64,000 nucleotides of DNA from Gemmatimonadota bacterium (GCA_046758745.1 JBHIAV010000003.1:19247-83246); one strand, 5' to 3'. Numbered from the stretch's first letter, positions 6,362-53,974 are shown. Numbers and translations: made by a program. The notes: generated by a model not told the origin, from the letters alone.

Positions 6362-6999
6362 CCGTTGTTCTCCCGCCGCTCCGACTCGGGCCAGATGCGC
6401 TCCGCCTCGAAGAGAGACTGCTGGGCGGGCGTCGGCGCCGGATAACGCACCGTCCCGCCGTGGAGGACCTCGGCGTCGGGGTGCAGCTGGTGCGGCTGCG
6501 TGCGGCCGGGACCGAGGATGTGCACAACGCTGGCGCCCCGCGCGACGAGACCGTCGGAGAGGAGCCAGCGGTGACAGCGCCACGGCAGAGCCTCGGCGCA
6601 CATGACGGCCACGGCGCGTCGTATACTCTCATCCAGCAGCCGCGTCACCGCGGCCGCGAAGGCCGGTGTCGCCATGTGGTCCGCATAGGCCCGGAATCCG
6701 GGGCTCCTGAGCGCGAGGTTCGGCGAATTCGGCCCCGGCAAGCGTCTCCCGCCGAGGTCTTCCTCGTGCCGATACTCGATCCGGGAAGCCGCCAGGTCCC
6801 GCGTCAGCACTGCCCGGCTGAAGTGAGGATGACGGCGAGATCCGGGGAACCTTCGGACGTCCACCAGGACCCTCACGTCATGCCCGCGCAGCAGGCGGAG
6901 GAACATCTCGGTGGAGCGGGTCGAGTGTCCGATGGTGAAGATGGGATGGCCCAAGTCGCTCACGCGCGTTGCTACGCGGGCCGGGTCGGTCCGTTCCAT
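6358..6999 (-). CDS. DUF488 family protein
   Basis: IFTIGHST, VDVRRFPGSR, MCAEALPWRCHR motifs; start trimmed to 6999. Confidence 0.88.
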
Positions 7000-7141
7000 T
7001 GACGCGCCGGGCCGACGGGACGACGGCATCTTCCTCGGCGCGGAGAACTTCCCGTGCCGCGGCCCAGATGGTGAGCTCCGGGGTGGCGGTCTATCTTGTC
7101 CCTCGGGTCGTGGCACGGATCCGTCCGCGTAGGAGCCTACG

Positions 7142-7837
7142 ATGAGGCTGTGGGTCGGGACGAGCGGGTACAGCTACAAGGAGTGGAAGGGAAGCTTCTA
7201 TCCCGAGAAGATCGCGGCGGACGAGATGCTCCGGTACTACGGCGAGCGGCTCCCCGCGGTCGAGATCAACAACACGTTCTACCGCCTGCCGAGCGAGAGC
7301 GTGCTGACCGCGTGGGCGGAGCGGGTGCCGGAGGACTTCCGTTTCTCCATCAAGGCGTCCCGGCGAATCACCCATATCAAGCGTCTGAAGAACGCGAGCG
7401 ACGAGACGACGTACCTCCTCCGCGCCCTGGCCATTCTCGGCCCCCGGCTCGGCGCCGTCCTCTTCCAGCTCCCCCCGAACCTGCGGAAGGACCTCGCCCG
7501 GCTGGAGAGCTTCCTCGACCTCATTCCGGAGGAGACGCCGACGGCCTTCGAGTTCCGGCACCAGTCGTGGTTCGACGACGAGGTGCTCGAATGCCTGCGA
7601 TCTAAGGGCCGAGCGCTGTGCGCGGCCGACACGGACGAAGCCGATCCTCCGGCCGTCATCGGGACCGCCCGGTGGGGGTACCTGCGGCTCAGGCGCGAGG
7701 AGTACTCCGACACCGACCTAGCGCATTGGGCGAATCGGGTCGCGGGCGAGGGGTGGAAGGAGGCCTTCGTCTTCTTCAAGCACGAGGAGGCGGGGGCCGG
7801 GCCGCGTCTCGCAAAGCGGTTTCTCGAGCTTTTATAG
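7142..7837 (+). CDS. DUF72 family protein
   Basis: VGTSGYSY, VEINNTFY, FSIKA, LFQLPP, AFEFRH motifs. Confidence 0.92.
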   Translation: MRLWVGTSGYSYKEWKGSFYPEKIAADEMLRYYGERLPAVEINNTFYRLPSESVLTAWAERVPEDFRFSIKASRRITHIKRLKNASDETTYLLRALAILGPRLGAVLFQLPPNLRKDLARLESFLDLIPEETPTAFEFRHQSWFDDEVLECLRSKGRALCAADTDEADPPAVIGTARWGYLRLRREEYSDTDLAHWANRVAGEGWKEAFVFFKHEEAGAGPRLAKRFLELL

Positions 7838-7887
7838 CCGGCGCCGCTGCTCCGCGAAACACGGCTGCTCGACACACAGACGACCGG

Positions 7888-8196
7888 CTAGTCGGCAAAC
7901 AGCTCAGGACGATGCTTGGCGATCCACTCGTGGAGGCTGTCCAGTTGGGTTTGCGACAGCGAATTCGGGTCCGTCTCTCGAAAGCTCGGAATCACACAGG
8001 CGGCCGCCCGCCACAGCAGGTACTTCCGCGTCATGATCTGTCGCTCGGCGGTCAGCGGTTTCAGGCGTGGAACATCCTGCATCGGCCTGATCAGCGTTCG
8101 GTAACTGAGCACATCTCGCCGGGAGAACCTCTTCGGTATCCGATAGGCCCGACCGCCCAGCTCGAACGCGCCGTCGCGACTGATGGTAATCCCCAT
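7888..8196 (-). CDS. Hypothetical protein (102 aa)
   Basis: Natural-looking composition with an SD-like ggggagc before the ATG; no family recognised. Confidence 0.6.
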   Translation of the reverse strand: MGITISRDGAFELGGRAYRIPKRFSRRDVLSYRTLIRPMQDVPRLKPLTAERQIMTRKYLLWRAAACVIPSFRETDPNSLSQTQLDSLHEWIAKHRPELFAD

Positions 8197-8430
8197 GCTC
8201 CCCCAGACTATCGATACCCTGGTCCGGTATACCCGCCAGAGGCCTCCGGTATCCGCCGCAGTTGCATGAGTCCTCGCATCTGCCTAGCCGACCGCGGCTG
8301 CCCCCCGTTTGCACTACCGGATGTCACCCCAGCACAGCCCGCCGACGTGGCGGCGTGCCCACACCGGGAGGTGCCCGCACGGTTGGCGGCGATCATCCAC
8401 CCGGCGACGGTGACCTGTCGCGCACGGTGA

Positions 8431-10341
8431 TCAACCGTCCTCGAGCAAAGCCTCCATCTCATCCATGATCTCGTTCATGCGCTTCACGAGCGCGCGATAC
8501 GGCTCCGGCTTCGCCATATCGACGCCCGCGTCGAGGAGAAGCCGGTAGGGATAGTCGGAGCCACCGGCGCGCAGGAGGTTCTTGAAGTTCTCCACCGCCG
8601 ACCCCCCCTCGGAACGGATTTTCTCATACATGGCCGTTCCCGCAGCGAGCGACGTGGCGTATTGATACACGTACATGTTGAAATAGAAATGCGGCACGAA
8701 CATCCACTCGTTGGAATAGAGGTCATCGACGACCACGACACCGTCGTCATGCCCGTGATACCGCTTGAGGATCTCCCCATATATCTCCGATATCCGTCTG
8801 CCTGAAAGCGCTTCCCCTCGTTCCACGGCTTCGTAGAGCGCCAGCTCGAACTCCGCGAACATCGTTTGGCGGAAAAAGGTCCCGCGTAGCTGCTCGAGAC
8901 CGGTTCCGAGATAGTAGAGCTTCTCTTCCTTGCTCCGTGCGTTCTCGACCATGTAGTGCTGCAAGATCAGCTCGAGAGTCGTCGAGGGAATCTCGGCGAT
9001 GAAAGTGGCATAGGAGGCCGTCTCGAAGGGCTGCCTCTGCTTCGCGTACAGCGTGTGCATGGCGTGGCCCCACTCGTGGGCGAACGTCGAAACAGACTCA
9101 TAGTCGTCGTTGAAGTTGAGAAGCAGATACGGGTGCACGTCGTACGCGAAGCCGTTCATGTAGGCTCCGGAGCGCTTGCCCTGTTGTGGGAATACGTGCA
9201 TCCACCGCTGGTTGATCGCATCGCGCTGCATCTCCACCCAGTCGTCCCCCAGCACCGACATGGCCTCCAAGGTGATCGTCTTCGCGTCCTCGACCGTGAA
9301 CTCCTTTTCGAGTGAGACGAGGGGGGGATAGATGTCGTAGTAGTGCATCTGATCGATGCCGAGCATCCGTTCCCGCAGCTTGAAGTAGCGGTGAAGCGTG
9401 GGAAGCGCCCTGTTCACCTCCTCTACGAGCGTCCGGTAGACTGCGGGCGGGATATTGTCCTGGAATAGCTCGCGCTCCAGGACGCTCTCATGCTTGCGAG
9501 CTCTGGAGAGGAATACCTGAGCCTGAAGATGCGAGTTGAGCGTCATTCCGACGCTGTTCTGGAACTCGCGCCACTTGCCCCAGAAGGCGTCGAATACCCT
9601 CTTCCGGTCCCCTCGGTTCTCCGCCTGGCGGTGAAGTGAATAGCCTTGAGAGTCGAGCCGTACCTTCTCGCCCGTCGAGAGGGTGATGGTGGGCCACGGA
9701 ATGTCGGAGTTGGCCAGCAAGCCATAGACATTGTACGCGGCGCCGAGGGGCTGCCCGGCTGCTGCCAGCACCCGCTCGGCCTCGTCACCCAGGGTGTGAG
9801 GTGCATTCCGCAGAATGTCATCCAGCCGATAGCGAAAGCGCTCGAGCCGTGGATCCTGGTCCACGAAGCCCATGATCTTGTCACGCCCGACGCGGAGCAC
9901 CTCCGGCTGATACCAGGCGGTGGCCTCGGAGAACCTGTTGAACATGGTCTGCGCGAGCTGGCGGCGTTCCTGGGTTTCCGGCAAGCGAAGGTCCTCATCC
10001 GCGCTCAGAGTGGCGTACACGGAAACACGGCCCGCCTTCTTCAACGTCTCGGAGATCAATGACGAGGCTGCGAGAAGCGCCTCCGGGCTGTCGCCGAGCG
10101 TTCCCTTCTTCGCTTCAATGTCCCGAAGGGCCGCCAGCACCTCCTGACGGGCCTGCTCCCATGACTCCACCGACGGGTAAAGATGGGTGAGATCCCAAGT
10201 GTAGGCGGGATCGGTCCTCGGGCGCTCTCCGGGGCCGGCGGCTTCCTGAGCGAGGGCCTGTAGCGGCAGCGCCGCCGATATGGCAAGGGAAGCGCCCAAC
10301 AGCCCGCGGAAAACGGGCGTCAGACTCCGGGCCAAGAGCAT
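8431..10341 (-). CDS. pepF: Oligoendopeptidase F (M3B) with signal peptide
   Basis: HEWGH zinc motif, GKRSGAY, HPYLLLN, YVYQYAT; N-terminal signal ending ALA-Q. Confidence 0.93.
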   Translation of the reverse strand: MLLARSLTPVFRGLLGASLAISAALPLQALAQEAAGPGERPRTDPAYTWDLTHLYPSVESWEQARQEVLAALRDIEAKKGTLGDSPEALLAASSLISETLKKAGRVSVYATLSADEDLRLPETQERRQLAQTMFNRFSEATAWYQPEVLRVGRDKIMGFVDQDPRLERFRYRLDDILRNAPHTLGDEAERVLAAAGQPLGAAYNVYGLLANSDIPWPTITLSTGEKVRLDSQGYSLHRQAENRGDRKRVFDAFWGKWREFQNSVGMTLNSHLQAQVFLSRARKHESVLERELFQDNIPPAVYRTLVEEVNRALPTLHRYFKLRERMLGIDQMHYYDIYPPLVSLEKEFTVEDAKTITLEAMSVLGDDWVEMQRDAINQRWMHVFPQQGKRSGAYMNGFAYDVHPYLLLNFNDDYESVSTFAHEWGHAMHTLYAKQRQPFETASYATFIAEIPSTTLELILQHYMVENARSKEEKLYYLGTGLEQLRGTFFRQTMFAEFELALYEAVERGEALSGRRISEIYGEILKRYHGHDDGVVVVDDLYSNEWMFVPHFYFNMYVYQYATSLAAGTAMYEKIRSEGGSAVENFKNLLRAGGSDYPYRLLLDAGVDMAKPEPYRALVKRMNEIMDEMEALLEDG

Positions 10342-10414
10342 GATCCCCTCCCGCGGGACATCAGCACGGCACCCCTCACGATTCCCCGCAACCACCGGAT
10401 CGGTTCCACTGCGG

Positions 10415-10960
10415 CTACCCGGCCTCCTCGGCCGCCAGCCGCTCCAGCATCTCCTCGTGCACCGCGCGGGCGGCGTCGCCGAACAGGACGAAGAGCACCC
10501 GCCTCACACGCGTCAGGCGCGGCACCTCATCGAGGATGGTGCGAAAGGCCACCTCGGCCGCTTCCTCCATCGGATAGCCGAAGGCTCCGGTGGAGAGCGC
10601 CGGGAAGGCGATCGAGTCGATCCCGCCCTCGTTCGCGAGGCGGAGGGCGTTCCGGTAGCAGTCGGCGAGCAGCTCGTCGGATGGCTCGTCGATCCCATAC
10701 CGAGGGCCGAGGCAGTGGATCACGTGCCGGTTGGGGAGACGATGGGCACGAGTGATGACGGCCTCGCCCGGCGAGATGGGCGCGAGAGGTCGGCACTCTT
10801 CCTCGAGCCCGGGACCGGCCGCGCGGTGGATCGCGCCTGCCACCCCGCCGCCCGTTCGGAGCTGGGCGTTGGCGGCGTTCACGATGGCCGCCACGTCGGG
10901 TTGGGCGGTGATGTCGCCCTGGCGGATCTCGATCTGGATGCCCGAGACGGTTCGGATCAT
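10415..10960 (-). CDS. Macro domain protein (O-acetyl-ADP-ribose deacetylase-like)
   Basis: GDIT, AIVNAAN, GGGVAGAIH, AFPALSTGAFGYP; start trimmed to ATG 10960. Confidence 0.92.
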   Translation of the reverse strand: MIRTVSGIQIEIRQGDITAQPDVAAIVNAANAQLRTGGGVAGAIHRAAGPGLEEECRPLAPISPGEAVITRAHRLPNRHVIHCLGPRYGIDEPSDELLADCYRNALRLANEGGIDSIAFPALSTGAFGYPMEEAAEVAFRTILDEVPRLTRVRRVLFVLFGDAARAVHEEMLERLAAEEAG

Positions 10961-42425: not shown

Positions 42426-42448
42426 GGAGGCTCCTCCGCGTGCGGCGT

Positions 42449-42509
42449 GAACGCCGTTCCGAGCACGGTCGCGAGCGCGGATCCGAACGCCGTTCCGAGC
42501 GCGGATCCG
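42449..42509. repeat. Interleaved short direct repeats
   Basis: gaacgccgttccgagc at 42449 and 42485; gagcgcggatccg at 42473 and 42497. Confidence 0.75.
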
Positions 42510-42647
42510 CACGCGTGCGGGCGCCGGGGGGTGCGAGAACGCTCCGGGCGCGCATGCGCCTTGCGTACCTCCGGAGTGCGAGGTAGACAGGTGAAGGGAA
42601 CTCGGCACGAGCCCGAGGCAGGAAGAGGGACCCACCAGCGAGGACGC

Positions 42648-43136
42648 ATGTCACGTCTGCGCGCCGCTCTTCTCATCATCGCCCTCGTCGCCTGCGGCCG
42701 CCCGGATGCGGGAGGGAGCTCGGCCGAGGGCTCGGCCACCACCGGAGAGCGGGCCCGCGGCGAGATCAAGCATGATTTCGCCGAAGAGCTCGGGGTCAAC
42801 CTGGCTTCCATGACGCGGACGGCGTCGGGACTGTATTACCGGGACCTCGCCGCGGGGCGGGGGCTCGATGCCCGGCCCGGCCACGTCGTGGTGATCCGTT
42901 ACACGGAATGGCTCCCCAACGGCGCCCGGGTCAGCGGCCACGACAGGCTCGATTTTCCGCTCGGCGGCGGGAGGGTGATCGCCGGATGGGAAGAGGGGAT
43001 CACCGGCATGCGCATCGGCGGTAGGCGGCAGTTGGTCATCCCCCCACACCTCGCATACGGATCGCGGGGCCGTGGTGAGATCCCGCCGAACGCGACCCTC
43101 ATCATGGACGTGGAACTGCTCGAGATCCGGATGTGA
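42648..43136 (+). CDS. FKBP-type peptidyl-prolyl isomerase, lipoprotein
   Basis: LVAC lipobox, VIAGWEEG, IPPHLAYG, IPPNATLI. Confidence 0.93.
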   Translation: MSRLRAALLIIALVACGRPDAGGSSAEGSATTGERARGEIKHDFAEELGVNLASMTRTASGLYYRDLAAGRGLDARPGHVVVIRYTEWLPNGARVSGHDRLDFPLGGGRVIAGWEEGITGMRIGGRRQLVIPPHLAYGSRGRGEIPPNATLIMDVELLEIRM

Positions 43137-43186
43137 CAAGTCGCTCCCCGCCCGATGTGAGCCCGCCCGAGCTGGCTGTCGTGCCG

Positions 43187-43459
43187 TCATTCCTCCAAAG
43201 ACCCGGCGGCGATGCCCAGGAGGAGGGTCGCGAGACAGCCGCCGCCGTACACGACGAGGACGGGAAGCCAGCTCCGCCACACGAAGAGGGCATACCACGG
43301 GGCCACGGCTAGGGTCAGAGGGAAGAGGATCGAGGCCAGGATCAGCCCCCACAGACCCGCCAGCGCGTGCGCGATCTGCAGCCCGAGGGCCAGCCCCGAC
43401 AGGCCCACCACGCCCCACGACACGTATGCCGTCCCGCGCAGCCACACCGCTCGCCGCAT
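43187..43459 (-). CDS. Small 3-TM membrane protein
   Basis: Three hydrophobic segments; ggagg SD before ATG 43459. Confidence 0.7.
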   Translation of the reverse strand: MRRAVWLRGTAYVSWGVVGLSGLALGLQIAHALAGLWGLILASILFPLTLAVAPWYALFVWRSWLPVLVVYGGGCLATLLLGIAAGSLEE

Positions 43460-43741
43460 GACCCGCCCTCCTGACTGGGGCCGATTCGACACGGATCGCG
43501 GCGCCGGAAGGGGCCTCCCGGTCGCCGCGGTGCGCGGAAGGTGCACCCCTCCGGGTGCGCCGAGCTCCCGCGCGTGGGTTCCGCCTGCAGCTTCCCGGCC
43601 AGCTCGGGGTGGAGAGCGTTAATTGGCGGCCGGCAAGTGAGTTGCAGCGGAGAGCCGAGGCGAGAGTGGTCCGGCCGACGAGGAAAGTATTTTCACCGGT
43701 TCAGCGCCCGACTGTGGCGGGCACGGAGTGCTCCTGCCTCC

Positions 43742-44611
43742 CTAGGGCCCCTGGTTCCCGCGGGGCACGAGGGCGACGGCGCGGAGCGGGCCCCCGGAGC
43801 CGCCGGCGATCTTCATCGGAAGAGCGACGATGAGAAAGCCCGTGGCGGGCAGCCGGTCCAGGTTTGCGAGGTTCTCCAGACCCGGAACGTCGGCGGCGGC
43901 CGCGATGCGGTGAACGATGAAGTCCTGCGAGGGACCATAGTCGATGGACGCGACGTCGGCACCGAGAGCGGCCACTCCTCTCTCCTCTACGAGTAGCCGC
44001 GCCGCCGACTCGCCGTAGCTCGGAAAGTGCAGGTTCGAGGCATCCCCCGGGGTGTCATCACCCAGGTACGCCCTCGGGTCCGGCCACCGGGACCCATATC
44101 CCGTGCGCAGCAGGACGATGGTGCCCGGCTCGACGCGGCCGTGCCGCCGCTCGAACTCCAGGACATCCTCGGAGACGAGCCGATAGTCCGGCTCCTCGGC
44201 GGCTCGCTCCGTGATGTCGATCACCACACCCGGTGCGATGAGCTGCGAGAGGGGGATCTCATCCGTCGTGTGCCGACCCTCACCGAAATGCCTCGGGGCA
44301 TCGAGGTGGGTACCGCCGTGCTCGGGCGCGCGGAACGCGTTGGCCGCGTAGAAGTAGCCTGCCTCGGTCCACCCGTAGCTCAGTCGCTCGAGCTCGAAGG
44401 TGGACGGCGAGGTCGGCCAGTAGACGGTCGCGGAATCGAACGCATGGGTCAGGTCTACGATCTCGGCGCTGGAGAGGTCCACGATCTGGGAGGAGGCGGG
44501 GCCAGCCACGAGCCATAAGAGCAAGCCACACGCTCCCAGAGATCGGCGCGCGCACGAGCCGGAGCTCCGCCTTCGCGCATCACAGAACCGAGCGGTTCGC
44601 GAGGGCATCAT
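43742..44611 (-). CDS. Cyclase family metal-dependent hydrolase (kynurenine formamidase-like), exported
   Basis: EHGGTHLDAPRHF, LLRTG, GLENL, PMKIAGGSGGP. Confidence 0.92.
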   Translation of the reverse strand: MMPSRTARFCDARRRSSGSCARRSLGACGLLLWLVAGPASSQIVDLSSAEIVDLTHAFDSATVYWPTSPSTFELERLSYGWTEAGYFYAANAFRAPEHGGTHLDAPRHFGEGRHTTDEIPLSQLIAPGVVIDITERAAEEPDYRLVSEDVLEFERRHGRVEPGTIVLLRTGYGSRWPDPRAYLGDDTPGDASNLHFPSYGESAARLLVEERGVAALGADVASIDYGPSQDFIVHRIAAAADVPGLENLANLDRLPATGFLIVALPMKIAGGSGGPLRAVALVPRGNQGP

Positions 44612-44870
44612 CCTGTCACCTCCTGCGTCGTATTGTGCGCGGATCATCCTGTCATCTTCCCCGACGCGACCGTCCGACCTTCCCCGCGGGCACGAACCTC
44701 GGGCCTCTCCCCGACGCGCCGCTCGACGCTCGCGTGGGCGCGCCGCCCGGATGGATGGACGGCTCGGCGCCCGGCCGTCAAGGCGTGTCGACGATTCGCG
44801 CTACGCTTTGGCCGGTCGACATACTACCTTGGTCTTGAGCCCGGCGCGTCCCGGAGCCAGGGAGCTACAG

Positions 44871-45476
44871 GTGGAGAAAGCAAGCCGACGCGCGACCGAG
44901 AGGTCGCAGATCCGGGAGGCCGAGGAGAGACCGAAGAGCCTGGGGCGGAACAACTGGCTGGCGGCGGCTCTGTACGTCCTCGCCGCCGAGGGAGTCGCTG
45001 GCGTTCGCGTGGAGAAACTGGCCCGCCTGCTGGGCGTGACCAAAGGGAGCTTCTACTGGCATTTCAAGAACCGGAAGGCTCTGCTGCGAAGTCTCCTGGA
45101 CTACTGGGTGGAGGAGATGACCGACAGCGTCAGCAGGTTCGTCGAGCGCATCGGAGGCGACCCTCGCAGCCGGCTGCTCGCTCTACTCGAGCACATCGAG
45201 TTCGAGGGCCGCAACCGCTACGACCCGGCCATGCGAGCGTGGGCCGCGTTCGATGAGACGGCAGCCGCGGTCGTCAAGGAGGTGGACGAGCGCAGGCTCC
45301 GTCTCGTGACGCAGATCTTCCGTGACATGGGATTCAGCGACACCGAGGCCGCCCTTCGAGGTCGAATGTCCTACTACTATCTGGTCGGGGAGGCGACCGT
45401 CCTCATCCAGGATTCGCCAGCGGACCACTGGGAATTCCTCCGCCTCCGCCACCGGCTACTCACCCACCCCATCTGA
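44871..45476 (+). CDS. TetR/AcrR family regulator
   Basis: RVEKLARLLGVTKGSFYWHFKNR helix-turn-helix; start uncertain. Confidence 0.92.
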   Translation: MEKASRRATERSQIREAEERPKSLGRNNWLAAALYVLAAEGVAGVRVEKLARLLGVTKGSFYWHFKNRKALLRSLLDYWVEEMTDSVSRFVERIGGDPRSRLLALLEHIEFEGRNRYDPAMRAWAAFDETAAAVVKEVDERRLRLVTQIFRDMGFSDTEAALRGRMSYYYLVGEATVLIQDSPADHWEFLRLRHRLLTHPI

Positions 45477-45786
45477 GCCCGCCGCCGGCCGGGGACGGCG
45501 CCGTCACCATCCGTCGCCCGGTCCCGCACCATTCCTCCCCGTATGGCGAAGCGCCACGGTCTACCCGCCTCGTGCAAGAGTCGCCCGCGCCGCTTCGTAC
45601 CACTCTCCCTTCGTTCCGTCTTTTGTAAGTCCTTTTCTGAGCGGGGAGTAATCAACCCGGCGAGCCGCCCGATCCCGTTGCTCGCACTGTGAACGAGTCT
45701 TGCTGTGGGACCCGGACAAGACGGCTGACAATACGGACACGTATGTCCGATTAGGTTCAGAGCACTGCGGCGAAGGGGGTCCGAGC

Positions 45787-46284
45787 ATGCACCGCAAAGT
45801 GTTCTCTGCGCTCGCCTGCGTCCTGCTTGCGGCGGTCGCGGAGGCTCAGGCGCAGTCCAGCGTCGGCGCCACGGCGACGATCACGATTCCGCAGGTCCTC
45901 TTCCTCAGCGTCGACGAGACCGCCATCAGCTTCAACCAGCCGGCCGGGACGGATTTCGAGACCGGATGGATCTCGGCGAACCAGGCGAGCACGGTCACCC
46001 ACAAGGGCAACGTGCAACGGGACGTGCAGCTCTCGGCGGACGTCGCCACATTCACGGCGACCAACGACCCGATCAACAACATCAAGCAGGCCGGCGACTT
46101 CGAGTGGTCGACCGACGGGGGGAGCACCTTCTTCGGGATCACGACGGCGGGCACGGAGATCGTGACGGCCGCTCCGAAGGGTGCTTCCAACGTGACGGTG
46201 AACTATCGGACGCTGCTCGATTACACGTCTGACGCGCCTGACACGTATACGCTGAACTTCACCTACACGGTCATCCCCAACTGA
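45787..46284 (+). CDS. Secreted pilin-like subunit 1 (putative major subunit)
   Basis: Signal ending AQA-Q, Thr/Ala/Asn-rich beta protein, N-terminal alternating strand ATATITI, C-terminal YTLNFTYTV; clear paralog of 47153..47656. Confidence 0.65.
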   Translation: MHRKVFSALACVLLAAVAEAQAQSSVGATATITIPQVLFLSVDETAISFNQPAGTDFETGWISANQASTVTHKGNVQRDVQLSADVATFTATNDPINNIKQAGDFEWSTDGGSTFFGITTAGTEIVTAAPKGASNVTVNYRTLLDYTSDAPDTYTLNFTYTVIPN

Positions 46285-46294
46285 GCGGCCGACC

Positions 46295-47149
46295 GTGAGC
46301 GTCGCGAGTCGAGGGCGCGGCGGGCGCGGGATGCCGAGGCGACGACCGGGTCCCGACCGGTCGAGCCCCGCACACCGCCGGGGGCGTCGCGTCCGCCTCG
46401 CGTCAATCCTCTCCGCTGCGGTCGCCGCGGCCGCACTCCCGCGGGCCGTGGCCGCCCAGTACTCGGTGTATCCGGTCATCGTGCAGCTCGCGGGGGCAGA
46501 CACGGCCGAGAGCGGGGTGCTGGTCGTCCGGAACGAGGGAGATGCGGCTCTGCGGATCCGTCTGTACGCGATGGACTTCGAGCAGGCGGCGGATGGATCG
46601 CACGAGTATTCCGAGCTCGGCACGCATCCGAGGTCCTGTAGGGATCGGCTGGGTGTCTTCCCCGACATGCTGAGCGTTGACCCGGGCATGGAGGGCCGGG
46701 TCTACCTGCGCATGGAGCCCGCGATCTCGGGGGACATCTGCTGGTCCGTCGTCTTCGCGGAGACCCCTGCGCCGACGCGATCCGGCCTCCGGATAACGCA
46801 GCGCATCGGGACGAAGGTATACGGACTCGCGCCGGGGACGGAGCCGTCGGGTGAGCTCGCCAGCGCCGCGGTGCAGGGCGGCGGCTCGGGGCGCTCCGTG
46901 ACCTTCGAGTTCCGCAACACGGGGGATCGCCCCCTGCGCCCGGAGGGGAGGGTCGAGATCCGTTCCCTCGAGGGAGCGGTCGCCGCGAGCCAGGAGATCG
47001 AGTCGTTCAGCGTGCTTCCCGGGCATAGCAGGCGGGTCGAGGTCGAGATCCCCGGCGGGCTCGCCCCCGGCCGCTACCTGGCGATCCCGATCCTCGACTT
47101 CGGCGGGGACTACCTGGCCGGCGCTCAGGTGGCGTTCCGGGTTCGTTGA
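46295..47149 (+). CDS. PapD-like periplasmic pilus chaperone
   Basis: Mature N-terminus YSVYPVIVQL, VRNEG, SVDPG, WSVVFAE, QRIGTKVY; second Ig domain FRNTGD...PGRY; start 46295 or 46331. Confidence 0.75.
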   Translation: MSVASRGRGGRGMPRRRPGPDRSSPAHRRGRRVRLASILSAAVAAAALPRAVAAQYSVYPVIVQLAGADTAESGVLVVRNEGDAALRIRLYAMDFEQAADGSHEYSELGTHPRSCRDRLGVFPDMLSVDPGMEGRVYLRMEPAISGDICWSVVFAETPAPTRSGLRITQRIGTKVYGLAPGTEPSGELASAAVQGGGSGRSVTFEFRNTGDRPLRPEGRVEIRSLEGAVAASQEIESFSVLPGHSRRVEVEIPGGLAPGRYLAIPILDFGGDYLAGAQVAFRVR

Positions 47150-47152
47150 GCC

Positions 47153-47656
47153 ATGGCCGCCGCGCGGCAGGTGTGCTCGGTCCGACGGCGTCTCGGACGC
47201 CCGCTCCTCGCCCTAGTCTCGCTCCTTTCCTTCCCAGCGTGGGCCCACGCTCAGGGCTGCACGGCCGGGCGAGCGGGCACCTTTCGCCTCCGCGTACAGC
47301 CCGCAGTGATCGCGTTCGACCCGCCGGGCCCGGCGGACTTCGAAGCCGGCCGCATCGACGCGCAGAGGGAGATCCGCATCGACGTGAGGCCGGAGTTCGG
47401 GGGAGGATCGAACTGGACGCTGTGCATTCGTTCCGACAGCCCGGATGCCGGCGGGTACGGTAAGCCGACGTCCGACTTCGAATGGCAGCTGGCGGGCGAC
47501 GTGATGTGGACGCCGCTCGAGACCGCGAACCGGCTCGTCTACGCGGGGCGCAATCGCCGGCGGGTCATCCTTCTCTTCCGCACGGTCCTCGACTGGGGCC
47601 GGGACGAGCCGGGCGACTACGGCCTGCCGCTCACCCTCACCGCGTACCGGCAGTGA
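47153..47656 (+). CDS. Secreted pilin-like subunit 2 (putative minor/tip subunit)
   Basis: Signal ending AHA-Q; shared blocks with subunit 1; two Cys in the mature chain. Confidence 0.65.
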   Translation: MAAARQVCSVRRRLGRPLLALVSLLSFPAWAHAQGCTAGRAGTFRLRVQPAVIAFDPPGPADFEAGRIDAQREIRIDVRPEFGGGSNWTLCIRSDSPDAGGYGKPTSDFEWQLAGDVMWTPLETANRLVYAGRNRRRVILLFRTVLDWGRDEPGDYGLPLTLTAYRQ

Positions 47657-47660
47657 CACG

Positions 47661-50381
47661 ATGGTGCGTCGGAGCGAGCTCGCGTTCGCGGTCGTCTGGT
47701 TCGGCCTGGCTCGAGTGCCGGCTTCGGCGCGGGCGCAGGAGAGCACAGCGGTGCTGCCGGCGATCGACGAGGGCTCGGTCGCCACGGTGCCGGTGGTCCT
47801 CCCCGAGGCCCTGCTCGAGGACGGGGGAGCCGACGCGACCGACCACGTGATCCGCTTCTCGGTGGAACCGGCGGGGGGAGTGCGCCTCCTCGGTGCCCCG
47901 GCGGGCGCGTTCACCTGGAGGGACGGCGACCCTCCCTTCTTCCCGCTCACCTTCATGGTCCCCCGGCGCTTTCCCGCCGGTCCGTTCCTCGCCGCGCGGG
48001 TCCTCTTCCGGGGCGGGACCGGACGGGAAGCGAGGATCGAGGTGCGTGCCCGCACGAGGCGTCGTCGGGATGTCCGGCTCGAGCTGCGGCCGATCGATGC
48101 GTCCCTCCATCCGGGCGGGACCGCCCGGCTCCGCTACGTCCTCACGAACCGCGGCAACGCGGAGGACACGGTGCGGCTGGCAGCGACGGGCCCGGCGCTC
48201 GATGCATTCGATCTTCCCGACACGGTGATCGTACCGCCCGGCCACCCGGCGGCGGGGGAGTTCCGAGTACGTGCCCGGCGGCGCGCGGCACCGGGAAGCA
48301 CCGCCCTCGTCCGCCTCGAGGCGACGGACCGTGAGCCCCGCGTCATGGCGACCGCCAACCTGACGGTGGTGCGTGACCCGGGATGGCTTCCCCATCTGGT
48401 CCACCTCCCGGCCACGGTGTTCCTGGGAGGCTCCGTGGTCCCGGGATACGGAAGCGGAGGGGGTGGCGCCGTCCTGAATGTGCAGAGCGCGGGTCGCATC
48501 GGAAGTCGGTCGTCGCTCCGCTTCTCCTACCGAAAGACGCCTGAGGACGGCGGCTCGCCGATCTTCGCCGGCGCCGCCTTCGGACCCCGCTTACAGGTCG
48601 GGATGGAGCACGGCGCGCTCGGCCTCACGGCAGGCGATGTAGTGGCTTCGACCGGTCACGTCTTCGGACGGCAGCATCCGGGAAGCGGCATAGAGGCGAG
48701 GTGGCGTGGAGAGCGGCTGTCCGTGGTCGCCGTCGCCGCCCGCCCGAGGGGACCGCGGGGAGGACTCTCCGGAACGCTCGGATCGGCCGTGGTGGACTAC
48801 GGGACTCCATTCGGAAACGTCGGCTTCGAGTTCGACTACCAGGAGCGGCCCGGCGGGCCCGACGGCCGCGGCACTCGGGTAGGGGGTGGCGTGATCCGGT
48901 ACACGTGGGAAGGAGCCGGCGCGCACCGCGTCGCTGCCGAAGCCGGACCCATGTGGGTGGCCGATGCCGACGGGGCGACGGCGGGGCTCGCCGCGGATCT
49001 CCGTTACGCGTACGCGGGGCTGCGGGCCGGCCTGGATGTCCGCGGCCGAACCCTCCCGGCGACGGCCGCCGGCGCTCGGCTTCCCCCCCGGGAGCTGCGC
49101 GCGGCGGGATGGACGGGGCTGTGGCGGGGCTTGAGCGCTGTCGGAAGCGCCTTCGCCGAGAGGGATCCTCCGACTCCCGGTGCGAGGACGACCCCGGCCG
49201 CGACCGAGGGCCTGGAAGCGGGCTTCCGACTGACCACGGGCGAGAGCCATCTCGACCTCACCGGGATCCTACGCCGATCGGAGAGCTTCCCCGAACTCGG
49301 TGCTCTCCCCTCTACGCGGCGTACGCTGCGCGGCGGCTTCGGCATGCTCCTCGGTCCGTTTCGGATCGACGGAAGTATGGAGCTCGGCGCCTCCCGCCGC
49401 GGGGAGCGACGCGGACCGGCCCGAACGTACCGGGGAGGCATCGCTTGGCTCGGCGAGCGCGGGCGTGTGCGGCTGGGCGGAAGCTTCGCCGAGGATATCG
49501 AGACGCCGCGCTCGGGGCAGGCGGAGCTTAGCGGCGCCTGGCGGATCGTCGGGCCGCTCGAGTTCCGGGTAGGCGCAGCTGCGGTCCTCGACGGAGGCGA
49601 CCTGTGGCCGGATCTCACCGCGTGGGGCGCGGCCCGTCTCGACCTCGGCCGACGTACGACGCTCTACCTCGGCGCCGAGTCGAGGGCGCCGCTCGCCACA
49701 GCCGAGGCGAGGGGCTCGCGCTGGCGCTTCTCGCTCGGCGTCCGCCGCCAGCTGCCCGTGCCGCTACCGCTTCGCCGCCGCCCGGCCGCAGAAGGGATCG
49801 TCTTCGAAGACCGGAACGGGAACGGCCGGCGCGAGCCCGGAGAGCCGCCCGTATCGGGGGCGCTGATCCGCCTGGGCGGAGAGCATGAGAAGACTGGGGC
49901 GGACGGCCGATTCGTCTTCGCGCCGAATGACGGCTCCTCCAGCCTGTGGGTCGATCCGGCGTCACTGCCTCCGGGTCGGCTCCCCGCCCGGAGCTTCTTC
50001 CCTCCCTCCGGTCTGGTGGAGATCCCGGTGATCCGGACCGCATCTCTCACGCTGCGTCTCTTCCTCGATGGGAACGGGAACGGTCGACGGGACGAAGGCG
50101 AAGGGCCGGCGCCGGAGGTCACCGTCCACATCGGGGACGAGGCGGCGGGGAGCTGGGTCGTTCGCTCCGCGGCGGACGGCGACGTTCGGCTCTCCGCCAT
50201 CCGGCCCGGCCACTACATCGTGCGGGTCGGGGGCGAATCGCTTCCCCCCCGGGCCACACCTCCGGAGGAGCTCGGCTTGCAGGTGGTGGGCGGCGAGAGC
50301 CTCGTCGTGGAAGTCCCCATCCGAACCGCGCCGCGCGCCGTTCGTTTCTCCGAGGGCTCGTCTCTCGAGGCTTGGGACTGA
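47661..50381 (+). CDS. 906-aa usher-like outer-membrane protein (Ig domains, beta-barrel, two SdrD-B-like domains)
   Basis: Signal ending ARA-Q; LTNRGNAED Ig motif; long run of amphipathic strands; DRNGNGRREPGE and DGNGNGRRDEGE motifs. Confidence 0.65.
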   Translation: MVRRSELAFAVVWFGLARVPASARAQESTAVLPAIDEGSVATVPVVLPEALLEDGGADATDHVIRFSVEPAGGVRLLGAPAGAFTWRDGDPPFFPLTFMVPRRFPAGPFLAARVLFRGGTGREARIEVRARTRRRRDVRLELRPIDASLHPGGTARLRYVLTNRGNAEDTVRLAATGPALDAFDLPDTVIVPPGHPAAGEFRVRARRRAAPGSTALVRLEATDREPRVMATANLTVVRDPGWLPHLVHLPATVFLGGSVVPGYGSGGGGAVLNVQSAGRIGSRSSLRFSYRKTPEDGGSPIFAGAAFGPRLQVGMEHGALGLTAGDVVASTGHVFGRQHPGSGIEARWRGERLSVVAVAARPRGPRGGLSGTLGSAVVDYGTPFGNVGFEFDYQERPGGPDGRGTRVGGGVIRYTWEGAGAHRVAAEAGPMWVADADGATAGLAADLRYAYAGLRAGLDVRGRTLPATAAGARLPPRELRAAGWTGLWRGLSAVGSAFAERDPPTPGARTTPAATEGLEAGFRLTTGESHLDLTGILRRSESFPELGALPSTRRTLRGGFGMLLGPFRIDGSMELGASRRGERRGPARTYRGGIAWLGERGRVRLGGSFAEDIETPRSGQAELSGAWRIVGPLEFRVGAAAVLDGGDLWPDLTAWGAARLDLGRRTTLYLGAESRAPLATAEARGSRWRFSLGVRRQLPVPLPLRRRPAAEGIVFEDRNGNGRREPGEPPVSGALIRLGGEHEKTGADGRFVFAPNDGSSSLWVDPASLPPGRLPARSFFPPSGLVEIPVIRTASLTLRLFLDGNGNGRRDEGEGPAPEVTVHIGDEAAGSWVVRSAADGDVRLSAIRPGHYIVRVGGESLPPRATPPEELGLQVVGGESLVVEVPIRTAPRAVRFSEGSSLEAWD

Positions 50382-50437
50382 GGACCGCCCCGTGTCCCTC
50401 GCGGCTCGGGACTGAGGACCGCCCCGTCCCTCGAGGC
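50365..50437. repeat. Tandem duplication, 2 x about 34 bp, spanning the usher-like gene stop
   Basis: gggactgaggaccgccccgt at 50374 and 50408. Confidence 0.85.
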
Positions 50438-50681
50438 ATAGCCGGGTTCCGGCCCTTCCGCGCGCCCGCCTCCGACATGACTCCTCCGTGGCCGGGGTAG
50501 AACGGATCGGCCAGCGGGTGGTATTCTACCCGATCGGCCCGACCAGCGCCGCGGACGCGTGCGCCGGGTTTGGTCTCCACGCGGGGTGTCGCTCGAGCTC
50601 CGGCCGCAGCCGACGCCATGACCGCGGCCGGCGGAGGCGGATGACCGGGAGCACGCCGGCGCACGTGACGAGGAGCCACAC

Positions 50682-51080
50682 ATGTCGAAGAAGATCGTGA
50701 AGTCGGACGCCGAGTGGCGCGAGCAGCTCGGGCCCGAACAGTACCGGATCACCCGCCAGAAGGGGACGGAGCGGCCGTTCACGGGCGAGTACCATGACTG
50801 CAAGGACCGGGGCGTCTACCGGTGCGTGTGCTGCGGGAACGAGCTCTTCAGCTCCGAGACGAAGTTCGACTCGGGCACCGGCTGGCCCAGCTTCTACGCG
50901 CCGGTCGCTGCCGAGAAGATCGTCACGGCGGAAGACGACAGCTTCTTCATGCGGCGCACAGAGGTCCTGTGCGGCCGGTGCGACGCCCACCTCGGCCATC
51001 TGTTCGAGGACGGGCCGCACCCCACCGGCCTCCGGTATTGCATCAACTCCGCCGCTCTCGAGCTCGGCCAGGAGGAGTGA
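50682..51080 (+). CDS. msrB: Peptide-methionine (R)-S-oxide reductase
   Basis: [33 protein letters not shown]. Confidence 0.97.
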
Positions 51081-53974
51081 TGCGGAACGCCAGTTCCCGC
51101 CCTCCGATCGCCCGGGTCGGCGCGGCTCGCGCCCTCATCGCCGGTCTCGGGCGCTCGCTGAGCGCCACCGCCGGAGCCGTTCTCCTCTCCTTGGTCGCGT
51201 GCGGGGCGGCGGCGGCTCAGGAAGCGGCCGTGGCCGATCCCGTCGCGGCGCTCGACTCCCTGCTCCCGGTCGACCCCGACATCCTCACGGGCGTACTCGA
51301 CAACGGAGTTCGCTACTACGTCCGCCGCAACGTGCGTCCGGAGGCGCGCGCCGAGCTTCGGCTGGTGGTGAACGCGGGATCCGTGCTGGAGGACGAGGAC
51401 CAGCTGGGGCTCGCCCACTTCGTCGAGCACATGGCGTTCAACGGCACCGAGCGGTACCCGCGCCAGGCGCTGGTGAAATACCTGGAATCGATCGGCATGC
51501 GCTTCGGAGCGGACCTAAACGCGTTCACGAGCTTCGACGAGACGGTGTACATGCTCACCGTCCCGACCGACAGCGCCGGCCTCCTGGAGCGAGCGATCGA
51601 CATCCTGACCGAGTGGGCGGGTCGGCAGGCGTTCGATGCGGAGGAGATCGACCGGGAGCGCGGGGTGGTGATCGAGGAGTGGCGGCTCGGCCGCGGAGCC
51701 TTCGCCCGCATGCTCGACGAGCAGCTCCCCATCATCCTCAAGGATTCGCGCTACGCCGAACGGCTCCCGATCGGGAAGAAGGAGGTGCTGGAGGGCTTCG
51801 ACCACGCCACACTGCGGCGCTACTACGCCGACTGGTATCGGCCGGAGCTGATGGCGGTGGTGGCGGTGGGCGATTTCGATCCGGAACGGGTGGAGGCGGT
51901 CATCCGGGAGAGCTTCGCGGCACTGGAGCCGCGGCCCGACCCGCGAGCGCGCGAGCTGTTCGAGGTACCGGATCACGCGGAGCCCCTCTTCGCCATCGCC
52001 ACCGACCCGGAGGCCCCCACCACGAGCGTGTCGGTCTATTACAAGCAGCCGATGCGAATCATGCGGACGGTCGGCGACTACCGGAGAAGCCTCGTCGAGG
52101 ATCTGTTCAACGGGATGCTGAACCGACGTCTCGAGGAGATCGTCCGCCGGCAGGACCCGCCCTTTCTCACAGCGTCGTCCGGCCAGGGACGCCTGGTCCG
52201 CTCGAAGGAGGTGTACGCTCTCGGCGCGGCGGTCGAGGAGGGTGGGGTCGCCCGCGGGCTGGCCGCCCTCCTCGCGGAGGCGGAGCGAGTGGACCGGCAC
52301 GGCTTCACGGCCTCGGAGTTCGAGCGGGCCAAGCGGAACCTCATCCGCTCCTGGGAGCGCGCCTACGCGGAACGGGAGAAGATGAACTCCACTGTCTTCG
52401 CCTCGGAGTTCGTCCGGGCCTACCTGGAGGAGGAGCCCGTGCCGGGGATCGCGTACGAGTTCCAGCTGGTGAAGCGGCTCATACCCGGCATCGTTCTGGA
52501 TGAGGTGAACCGCCTCGCCCGCGAGTGGATCACGAGAGAGAATCGGGTCGTCGTGGTGAGCGCCCCCGAGAAGGCGGAGAGCCCGGTCCCCTCCGAAGCG
52601 GAGCTCGCGGACATGTTCGACTCGGTGGCAGACGCCGCGATCGAGCCGTACGTGGACGAGGTGACCGATCTCCCTCTGGTGGCGGCCGCCCCGCCGCCCG
52701 CCAGGATCGCCGAGGAGCGAAGCATCGAGGAGATCGGAGTCACCGAGTGGCGGCTCTCCAACGGCGTGCGGATCTTCCTGAAGCCCACCGACTTCAAGGA
52801 CGATCAGATCCTCTTCCGGGCGTACAGCCCTGGGGGGAGCTCGCTCGCCCCCGACGAGGAGTACGTGCCGGCCTCCACCGCGGCCACCGTGATCGCCCAG
52901 GGCGGCGTTGGTGAGTTCGATCGGGTGGCGCTCGAGAAGAAGCTGACGGGCAAAGCGGTCCAGGTCAGGCCGATCATCGGTGAGCTACGGGAGGGCCTCT
53001 CCGGAAGCGCCTCTCCGCAGGACATCGAGAGCCTTTTCCAGCTGGTATACCTCTACTTCACCGCTCCGCGCGCCGACACGGCGGCCTTCACCTCCTTCCG
53101 CCAGAGGGTCCGCGCCTTTGTCGAGAATCGGGGGGCGAGCCCGGAGGCGGTCTTCCAGGACACCGTCACGGTGACGCTGGCCCAGCATCATCTGCGTGCG
53201 AGGCCGCTGACCCCGGAGCTGGTCGATGAGATGGATCTCGGGGAGTCGTTCAACTTCTACCTCGACCGCTTCGCGGACGCCTCCGACTTCACCTTCGTGT
53301 TCGCCGGCAGCTTCGACCCCGACTCGCTCCGGCCGCTCGTGCGAACGTACCTCGGCGGCCTCCCCTCCGCGGCGCGAGAAGAGAGATGGCGCGACGTCGG
53401 GATCGACCCGCCGGTCGGCGTGGTGAAGAAGACCGTGCGCAAGGGGCTCGAACCCAAGAGCCAGACGGTCATCGTCTTCACGGGCCCGTTTGAGTTCTCG
53501 CGAGAGAGCGCGTTCGCGCTTGGGGCGATGGCCGAAGCGCTCGACATCGTGCTCCGCGAGACGCTCCGCGAGCAGCTCGGGGGAACGTACGGCGTGCAAG
53601 TCGGGGCCTCGGCTACGGGTGAGCCGAAGCCCCGATACTCCCTCCGGATCGCCTACGGTGCCGATCCGCAGCGTCTTGCCGCGCTCGCCGAGGTGGCGTT
53701 CGAGCAGATCGCTCGCATGGCGGAGCGCGGTCCGCCGGAAGACGTGCTGGGACGCGTGAAGGAGCAGCTGCGACGGGGGCGGGAGACGGCGGAGCGGACG
53801 AACGGGTTCTGGGTCTCACAGATCGGGAATTACGACCGGAACGGGTGGGATCTCGGCTCGATCACGGCGTACGGGGATCTCGTCGACGCTCTCACCGTCG
53901 AGAGAGTGGCCGAGATGGCTCGCCTCCTGCGACCCGACAACTACGTGCAGGTTTCTCTATACCCGGAGGAATGA
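51080..53974 (+). CDS. M16 family zinc protease (PqqL-like)
   Basis: GLAHFVEHMAFNGT, NAFTSFDETVY, duplicated LSNG half; TGATG coupling to msrB. Confidence 0.94.
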   Translation: MRNASSRPPIARVGAARALIAGLGRSLSATAGAVLLSLVACGAAAAQEAAVADPVAALDSLLPVDPDILTGVLDNGVRYYVRRNVRPEARAELRLVVNAGSVLEDEDQLGLAHFVEHMAFNGTERYPRQALVKYLESIGMRFGADLNAFTSFDETVYMLTVPTDSAGLLERAIDILTEWAGRQAFDAEEIDRERGVVIEEWRLGRGAFARMLDEQLPIILKDSRYAERLPIGKKEVLEGFDHATLRRYYADWYRPELMAVVAVGDFDPERVEAVIRESFAALEPRPDPRARELFEVPDHAEPLFAIATDPEAPTTSVSVYYKQPMRIMRTVGDYRRSLVEDLFNGMLNRRLEEIVRRQDPPFLTASSGQGRLVRSKEVYALGAAVEEGGVARGLAALLAEAERVDRHGFTASEFERAKRNLIRSWERAYAEREKMNSTVFASEFVRAYLEEEPVPGIAYEFQLVKRLIPGIVLDEVNRLAREWITRENRVVVVSAPEKAESPVPSEAELADMFDSVADAAIEPYVDEVTDLPLVAAAPPPARIAEERSIEEIGVTEWRLSNGVRIFLKPTDFKDDQILFRAYSPGGSSLAPDEEYVPASTAATVIAQGGVGEFDRVALEKKLTGKAVQVRPIIGELREGLSGSASPQDIESLFQLVYLYFTAPRADTAAFTSFRQRVRAFVENRGASPEAVFQDTVTVTLAQHHLRARPLTPELVDEMDLGESFNFYLDRFADASDFTFVFAGSFDPDSLRPLVRTYLGGLPSAAREERWRDVGIDPPVGVVKKTVRKGLEPKSQTVIVFTGPFEFSRESAFALGAMAEALDIVLRETLREQLGGTYGVQVGASATGEPKPRYSLRIAYGADPQRLAALAEVAFEQIARMAERGPPEDVLGRVKEQLRRGRETAERTNGFWVSQIGNYDRNGWDLGSITAYGDLVDALTVERVAEMARLLRPDNYVQVSLYPEE

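Follow-up and report, generated by a model that had tools for sequence, protein, structure and literature searches.

A probable, strongly diverged chaperone-usher-type fibre assembly locus in a Gemmatimonadota bacterium

Chaperone-usher (CU) pili, a textbook case of how proteins are secreted and assembled into fibres, have been studied almost exclusively in Proteobacteria. The canonical outer-membrane usher consists of an N-terminal domain (NTD), a barrel of 24 strands that carries a plug inserted between strands 6 and 7, and two C-terminal domains (CTD1 and CTD2). In classical Fim/Pap chaperones, the cleft residues Arg8 and Lys112 anchor the C-terminus of the subunit. The reviewed range of the archaic systems covers Proteobacteria, Cyanobacteria, and Deinococcus-Thermus (PMC4654587). 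Chaperone-guided donor-strand exchange has also been shown for the WxL (Elr) system of Bacillota, which is reported to be confined there and in which 96.7% of the chaperones carry a C-terminal membrane anchor (bioRxiv 10.64898/2026.10.17.759780). Here we analyzed an operon in a 64,000-nucleotide stretch of DNA (hereafter, the window) from a Gemmatimonadota bacterium (GCA_046758745.1, JBHIAV010000003.1:19247-83246). Its four co-oriented open reading frames (ORFs), at positions 45787-50381 on the + strand and separated by gaps of 10, 3, and 4 bp, probably encode a complete, strongly diverged CU-type fibre assembly system. We regard the locus as a deep, previously undescribed variant of the CU pathway, and thus of a known mechanism, rather than as an analogous system or a new mechanism. 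Its parts are as follows.

45787-46284, + strand: subunit A, 165 amino acids (aa); candidate major (shaft) subunit, with the N-terminal strand SVGATATITI after the signal peptide
46295-47149, + strand: two-domain PapD-superfamily chaperone, predicted periplasmic; 284 aa from the GTG at 46295, or 272 aa from the ATG at 46331
47153-47656, + strand: subunit B, 167 aa; paralog of subunit A without the N-terminal strand, candidate tip or cap
47661-50381, + strand: usher-like, predicted outer-membrane protein, 906 aa
47742-48386, + strand: two tandem N-terminal immunoglobulin (Ig)-like domains of the 906-aa protein (residues ~28-136 and ~137-242; DSSP of the AlphaFold2 [AF2] model)
48387-49778, + strand: predicted beta-barrel region (residues ~243-706; DSSP strand list)
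49779-50351, + strand: two C-terminal SdrD_B/CarboxypepD_reg-like beta-sandwich domains (residues ~707-793 and ~794-897)
49809-49826 and 50067-50084, + strand: motifs DRNGNG and DGNGNG, as translated, in the C-terminal domains

An earlier reading of the window, made by a model from the DNA alone (the sequence-only reading), had described four packed, co-oriented genes that all bear signal peptides, the second small protein being a paralog of the first. Both points held. Judged by eye, each of the four products has an N-terminus that runs from basic through hydrophobic residues to an AxA-type end, with putative cleavage ends at AEAQA/Q, AVAA/Q, AHA/QG, and ARA/QE in gene order; the same signal-peptide-like stretches appear in the AF2 models with low confidence or as an isolated helix. 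Subunits A and B share 27% identity (E 5e-11). A Shine-Dalgarno-like AAGGGGG lies 9 nt before the ATG of subunit A.

Searched with Pfam, the four proteins gave only one match above the cut-off, SdrD_B in two stretches of the large protein (E 3e-8), with CarboxypepD_reg as a sub-threshold match in the same protein. NCBIfam and a sequence search of the PDB returned no matches to any of the four, and the database label of the homologs is "hypothetical protein." The Pfam models Usher, PapC_N, and PapC_C matched neither the large protein nor its 49 homologs (50 in all). The organism's own genome assembly (87% complete) had no match to Pfam Usher or PapD_N, and so no canonical usher or chaperone, and no subunit genes beyond the two of the operon. 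Comparisons of profiles and predicted folds, in contrast, did recognize CU parts.

For the chaperone, we collected 27 homologs and a further 30 from genomes of the phylum and built an AF2 model from them (predicted local distance difference test [pLDDT], 91.5; predicted template modelling score [pTM], 0.81), in which two beta-sandwich domains come after a signal helix. The sequence-only reading had called this protein PapD-like. Pfam PapD_N does not match the window chaperone itself, but it does match 13 of 51 homologs (best E 1.1e-8), and fold and profile comparisons agree with the assignment. In a Foldseek search of the PDB, the best match was WxLIP of Enterococcus faecium (9i1y, E 1.8e-11), followed by CfaA, CsuC, Caf1M, FimC, DraB, EcpB, and PapD with E values of 1e-9 to 1e-6 and TM(target) of 0.5-0.6. 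Run against the PDB, the chaperone profile placed CupB2 on top, with EcpB, FaeE, and YadV also present. HHalign of the chaperone family scored 91-93% against 10 CU chaperones of E. coli K-12, covering both domains, 94.6% against an archaic chaperone of the same phylum, and 96.2% against the chaperone of an operon with DUF4402 subunits (see below); controls that set a chaperone profile against an usher profile scored 0.1-0.4%.

The D1-strand proline is the sole residue invariant across the CU superfamily (PMC4654587), and the window chaperone carries it as P111, which is near-invariant in the family and aligns both with the PP motif of the E. coli chaperones and with the archaic chaperone of another genome of the phylum (G284). 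K162, in the motif R-I-G-x-K-V-Y, is conserved and aligns with the G1-strand Lys112 of classical chaperones. No C-terminal membrane helix was found in the chaperone sequence. By homology and predicted fold, these data show that the product of 46295-47149 belongs to the PapD superfamily and is a soluble protein of the periplasm; its putative mode of binding is described below.

The 906-aa protein was modelled with AF2 from 69 sequences (pLDDT 89.8; pTM 0.72). The predicted layout comprises two N-terminal beta-sandwiches, a long run of barrel strands, and two C-terminal beta-sandwiches, in keeping with the N-terminal Ig domains and barrel that the sequence-only reading had proposed. DSSP assigned ~26 consecutive long strands to residues 246-705, connected by 2-18 residues; since the longest connection is 18 aa, the modelled barrel would leave no room for an inserted plug domain. 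Compared with the canonical usher, the barrel and the two C-terminal beta-sandwiches are thus present, whereas the plug, the NTD, and the count of 24 strands are not matched. The usher is atypical, as had been claimed: no plug is inserted, the N-terminus is a double Ig, and the C-terminal domains are of the SdrD_B type, the DxNGNG motifs noted earlier being present in both.

In a fold comparison of the large protein with the PDB, the top 12 matches were all FimD or PapC (E 3e-16 to 5e-10, ~790 aligned columns). SdrD, MtrB, TonB-dependent receptors, and LptD came later, at E 1e-9 to 1e-6; FimD and PapC lead the last three by 6-9 orders of magnitude. Profile comparison pointed the same way. HHalign of the large-protein family against ushers, after one archaic usher of the phylum had been added to the E. 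coli sequences, scored 92.7% (E 4e-7) over query 463-843 and template 488-799, a span of 305 columns for this family that takes in the last third of the barrel, CTD1, and CTD2. Taken separately, the C-terminal half of the barrel matched the equivalent part of the usher barrel (40%, P 3e-4), and CTD1 (P 8e-4) and CTD2 (P 0.012) each matched at the equivalent usher position, all three matches being below threshold. The CTD1 family motif TD..GrF.F....l.VD..SLP aligned with the usher motif Td..G.av.p....valDt..l. From fold matches, colinear HHalign, and separate domain matches, we read the 906-aa protein as most likely a distant homolog of ushers whose domain set has been rearranged, and not as an analogue. 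The sequence-only reading had seen no PapC/FimD signature and had left the secretion channel as either divergent or analogous: the absence of a signature holds for the Pfam models only, and of the two options the data support divergence.

The terminal domains of the large protein each form a duplicated pair (HHalign: CTD1 versus CTD2, 97.9%; Ig1 versus Ig2, 91%). CTD1 and CTD2 also scored 99.2% and 96.6% against the C-terminal domains of the usher from a DUF4402 operon. An exhaustive HMMER search with the large protein found 1371 library proteins at E<=0.001, ~70 of them full-length (870-1050 aa) and most others covering the SdrD_B region alone. Of 50 homologs, Pfam detected SdrD_B in every one and CarboxypepD_reg in 47, and D717 is invariant in the family. 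The Ig region of the homologs matches the Pfam families NPCBM_assoc, Ig_VWA7, and FixG_C, and HHalign found no similarity of Ig1 or Ig2 to the NTD or the plug of ushers.

Both subunits fall into a pilin-like family (alignments A4 and A7) that has neither a name nor a Pfam or NCBIfam match; a near-invariant C-terminal motif, P-x-x-Y...T, is found in all its members. Their N-termini divide according to gene position. All 25 of the subunits in A4 that are not of the pilB type have, after the signal peptide, 9-26 aa with an alternating T/S-x-V/I pattern, such as TASVTV or, in subunit A, SVGATATITI, often following a Cys-x(n)-Cys loop. These subunits are encoded 5' of the chaperone or 3' of the usher, and the strand extension is present regardless of which. 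In the subunit encoded between chaperone and usher, only 0-5 residues precede the first core strand (9 of 9 loci). This split is the pattern expected if strand donors are distinguished from a distal cap that only accepts a strand. On the strength of these alignments, subunit B may be the distal tip or cap and subunit A a strand donor, and the same N-terminal-strand pattern would fit subunits with an incomplete Ig fold that assemble by donor-strand exchange.

Known pilin families do not account for the subunits. SCPU matched 1 of 34 (E 0.024), and HHalign to a bona fide SCPU subunit scored 1.7%; DUF4402 (PF14352) matched 0 of 34, with HHalign below 1%, and the Pfam WxL domain had no matches among them. 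We also considered TLP-1 and TLP-2, reportedly orphan donor-strand fibrils found in pond water by the CryoSeek study. They were the top PDB matches of alignment A4 (9IKK, TLP-2, E 0.18; 9IKJ, TLP-1, E 1.6), the matches being local to the N-terminal strand and the end motif PG.Y.L.V.F, and were absent with A7. Kinship at the sequence level was accordingly rejected, and a link between the subunits and TLP-1 is kept as a lead.

The same four genes recur well beyond the window. HMM (hidden Markov model) annotation found the order subunit-chaperone-subunit-usher in ~40 of 51 related loci; co-occurrence elsewhere had been proposed with the original description as a check, and recurrence of one gene order in dozens of loci indicates that the arrangement is not due to chance. 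The chaperone family is present in 58 of 401 sampled Gemmatimonadota genomes (29 of 148 genera). Among the closest relatives, 41 genomes were searched, the organism's own being one of them, and 3 carry it. Longimicrobiales and Gemmatimonadota are the names attached to the nearest homologs, which agrees with the earlier placement of a CU-type locus in a diderm outside Proteobacteria. When species-representative genomes were scanned, 32 loci were recovered, all labelled Gemmatimonadota, Gemmatimonadales, or Longimicrobiales, a count that does not bound the distribution because the scan used close patterns. In more distant relatives (L038-L053), one or more extra subunit genes lie 3' of the usher, sometimes on the opposite strand. 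The N-terminal extensions of these extra subunits are long and include a Cys-x(n)-Cys loop; no gene of this kind occurs in the window operon. One relative (L047, G171:C1:2020000-2039999) carries two tandem copies in the order p p C U p p p C U p (p, subunit; C, chaperone; U, usher) on a complete 4.7-Mb chromosome, and its genome is a possible cultured or complete-genome model.

The phylum also holds CU operons of other kinds. The Pfam Usher model found 2 of 401 phylum genomes, G284 and G162, and only G284 had an usher above the Pfam cut-off. The two loci are as follows.

L114 (G284:C1:3700000-3718000), 6667-10865, + strand: archaic CU operon (SCPU E 2e-28, PapD_N E 5e-13, Usher E 9e-17)
L115 (G162:C9:4000-20000), 6563-10829, - strand: DUF4402, 274-aa chaperone, DUF4402, 816-aa usher-like protein

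The archaic operon, with SCPU, PapD_N, and Usher, was found in 1 of 401 genomes and is clearly distinct from the window type. The 816-aa usher-like protein of L115 matches Pfam Usher weakly (E 1.5e-3) and heads a set of at least 129 Gemmatimonadales proteins that are labelled at most "carboxypeptidase regulatory-like." Against the window usher family, HHalign of the DUF4402-type usher scored 99.4% (E 2e-21), the alignment spanning the C-terminal domains and the barrel's last third; against true ushers it scored 91.6% over 567 columns, compared with the 305 of the window family. Because it matches both sides, the DUF4402-type usher forms a bridge between the window family and true ushers. At least three CU lineages thus coexist in Gemmatimonadota, and the window type is the furthest from canonical sequence models. 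In the literature searched, no paper mentioned DUF4402 and none linked chaperone-usher systems with Gemmatimonadota.

Taking these data together, assembly could proceed as follows. All four products would be exported by Sec, as their signal-peptide-like N-termini suggest. In the periplasm, the chaperone would use its G1 strand (R158-I-G-x-K162-V-Y) to cap subunits by donor-strand complementation. The 906-aa protein would act as the outer-membrane usher, its barrel serving as the secretion channel. In place of the usher CTD1 and CTD2, two SdrD_B-like domains of the calcium-binding type would hold chaperone-subunit complexes under the pore, and the pair of N-terminal Ig-like domains would replace the usher NTD. 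As the barrel has no inserted plug, its gating may, speculatively, also fall to one of the Ig-like domains. Subunit B, which has no N-terminal strand, would enter first and end at the tip. Subunit A would then polymerize below it by donor-strand exchange, the ATATITI strand of each inserting into the preceding subunit.

Several observations weigh against a CU assignment. The plug insertion that defines ushers is absent from the predicted barrel, and the N-terminal domain of the large protein is unrelated to the usher NTD. HHalign against nine E. coli ushers alone reached 44% (P 2e-4, 306 colinear columns) and exceeds 90% solely once the one archaic usher joins the profile. The barrel alone is unspecific: it matched the FimD translocation domain (3ohn) at E 3e-7, no better than other large barrels, so that the usher signal derives from the whole architecture. 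In the chaperone, the position of the classical Arg8 is variable and occupied by Val in the window protein, which leaves the cleft pair of Arg8 and Lys112 incomplete. HHalign detected no similarity between the subunit family and FimA-type, SCPU, or DUF4402 pilins, a null result of little power because HHalign also fails between known pilin families.

The 906-aa barrel could be an unrelated transporter or sheath of the MtrB, LptD, or TonB-receptor type, its usher likeness generic and the small proteins unconnected with fibres. LptD and MtrB have 26 strands and ushers 24, so the predicted count of ~26 sides with the former; fold scores for the barrel alone do not discriminate (3ohn 3e-7, Cir 1e-7, MtrB 3e-8, LptD 4e-7), and Pfam Usher matched 0 of 50 homologs. 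Yet the neighboring gene encodes a PapD-superfamily chaperone (HHalign 91-96%), similarity to the usher profile is colinear across the end of the barrel, CTD1, and CTD2, the locus shows no cytochrome, Lpt, or TonB-box context, and linkage of the large-protein gene to pilin-like genes is invariant. We therefore consider an unrelated barrel quite improbable. Spurious ORFs or a chance juxtaposition are scarcely credible: with a G+C content of 69%, DNA like that of the window yields many long spurious ORFs in all frames, but dozens of genomes carry conserved homologs of all four genes in this order, which refutes that explanation, and the chaperone and the large protein both gave confident models.

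A different objection accepts a CU-like machine and questions its product, which might be a capsule-like or matrix polymer (as in Caf1/F1 or of the TasA type) or singly displayed subunits rather than a thin pilus, with subunit B as an assembly cofactor. The window has no gene for a two-domain adhesin, subunit B being single-domain, and the extra subunit genes 3' of the usher in many relatives suggest a variable composition. Tipless chaperone-pilin operons, possibly with a matrix role, are described in the WxL preprint (bioRxiv 10.64898/2026.10.17.759780). That subunits divide strictly into those that carry the strand and those that lack it, in a fixed relation to gene position, fits an ordered fibre of tip and shaft better than a homopolymer capsule, and we regard a non-pilus product as unlikely. 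An ordered fibre built by a diverged CU pathway remains the explanation we prefer.

Within that preferred explanation, a more specific proposal is tentative and, taken as a whole, rather doubtful: the locus could represent a separate deep CU class that has the DUF4402-type operons as its sister and is distinct from classical, alternative, and archaic systems. Such a class would combine a plug-less usher, in which a wider barrel of ~26 strands is gated, or subunits are recruited, by the duplicated N-terminal Ig pair, with calcium-dependent SdrD_B-type C-terminal domains and a new family of pilin folds. Its chaperone would stand structurally between the CU chaperones of diderms and the WxL chaperones of monoderms, and its subunit family might even include orphan fibrils such as TLP-1.

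Outside the core parts, one upstream gene is a candidate local regulator.

44751-45476, + strand: TetR-family regulator gene (Pfam TetR_N E 5.9e-11), 310 bp upstream of the operon

A TetR homolog (45-51% identity) adjoins the operon in the four closest operon-carrying genomes, where it lies on the opposite strand and is divergent. A sigma-54-dependent response regulator sits upstream of the operon in one metagenomic relative. A sigma-54 promoter 5' of subunit A was considered for the window and rejected, pattern matches being at chance level and none close to the operon; a scan of 45300-50800 found neither sigma-70 promoters nor intrinsic terminators. Further upstream, 42447-44647 encodes a putative cyclase (PF04199) and a peptidyl-prolyl isomerase of the FKBP type whose N-terminus is signal-like. 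The two are housekeeping-like, and their homologs were not seen beside the operon in relatives. Downstream on the + strand lie msrB (50682-51080, SelR domain E 5e-52) and an ORF of ~1000 aa (50822-53974) that encodes a putative M16-type peptidase, as read from its sequence. When this ORF is taken from its first GTG, an overlap with msrB results, and the true start therefore probably lies near 51100.

A complete CU system in about one in seven genomes of Gemmatimonadota, a phylum of mostly uncultured environmental bacteria, would bear on CU biology in several ways. The usher departs from the canon in the very parts thought essential for gating and handover (plug, NTD, and CTDs), and the locus is thus a natural experiment on which usher features are required. 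Its subunits define an unnamed family. The nearest solved fold of its chaperone is a Gram-positive WxL chaperone, which bears on the evolution of chaperone-guided donor-strand exchange. If the locus does represent a separate deep class, the chaperone could help to root the origin of that exchange, and if the subunits are of the TLP-1 type, orphan environmental fibrils would gain an assembly machine.

Set beside the described systems, the locus shares with archaic and alternative CU systems (Csu, with CsuA/B, CsuC, and CsuD; CFA/I, with CfaA and CfaB; ECP, with EcpB) the operon logic of subunit, chaperone, and usher. A two-domain PapD-superfamily chaperone is common to both, CfaA and CsuC being the best CU folds for the window chaperone, and the predicted usher of the locus has, like theirs, two C-terminal beta-sandwich domains. 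Unlike the archaic systems, the window subunits are not SCPU proteins, and Pfam Usher and PapD_N do not reach the window locus. The window usher also differs from archaic ones in its predicted architecture, with no inserted plug, ~26 strands, a double-Ig N-terminus, and SdrD_B-type C-terminal domains with DxNGNG. With classical systems (FimA/C/D/H; PapD/PapC), it shares the G1-strand Lys, the invariant D1-strand Pro, and the FimH/FimA logic of a tip candidate without an extension and a shaft candidate with one. It differs from them in having no conserved Arg8, plug insertion, PapC_N/PapC_C, or two-domain lectin adhesin, and structural alignments with CU proteins give 10-16% identity.

WxL pili of Bacillota (PDB 9i1y, 9i25), which combine a chaperone (ElrE/WxLIP) of the DUF916 + DUF3324 type with WxL-domain pilins, resemble the window system in their small, beta-rich, chaperone-guided subunits, and WxLIP is the single best fold for the window chaperone. 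Donor-strand exchange has been shown for Elr, whereas for the window locus it is an expectation from the N-terminal strands. The window chaperone has no membrane anchor, and DUF916 (PF06030) and DUF3324 (PF11797) matched 0 of 51 chaperones of its family in Pfam. The WxL system has no usher; the window locus has a predicted outer-membrane usher and no LPxTG or sortase part. The DUF4402 operons of Gemmatimonadales differ from the window locus in their subunit family and in the N-terminal halves of the usher-like proteins, which do not align. Yet they have the same gene order, related chaperones (96.2%), and related C-terminal usher parts (99.4%), and their usher C-terminal domains are, like those of the window usher, of the CarboxypepD_reg/SdrD_B type.

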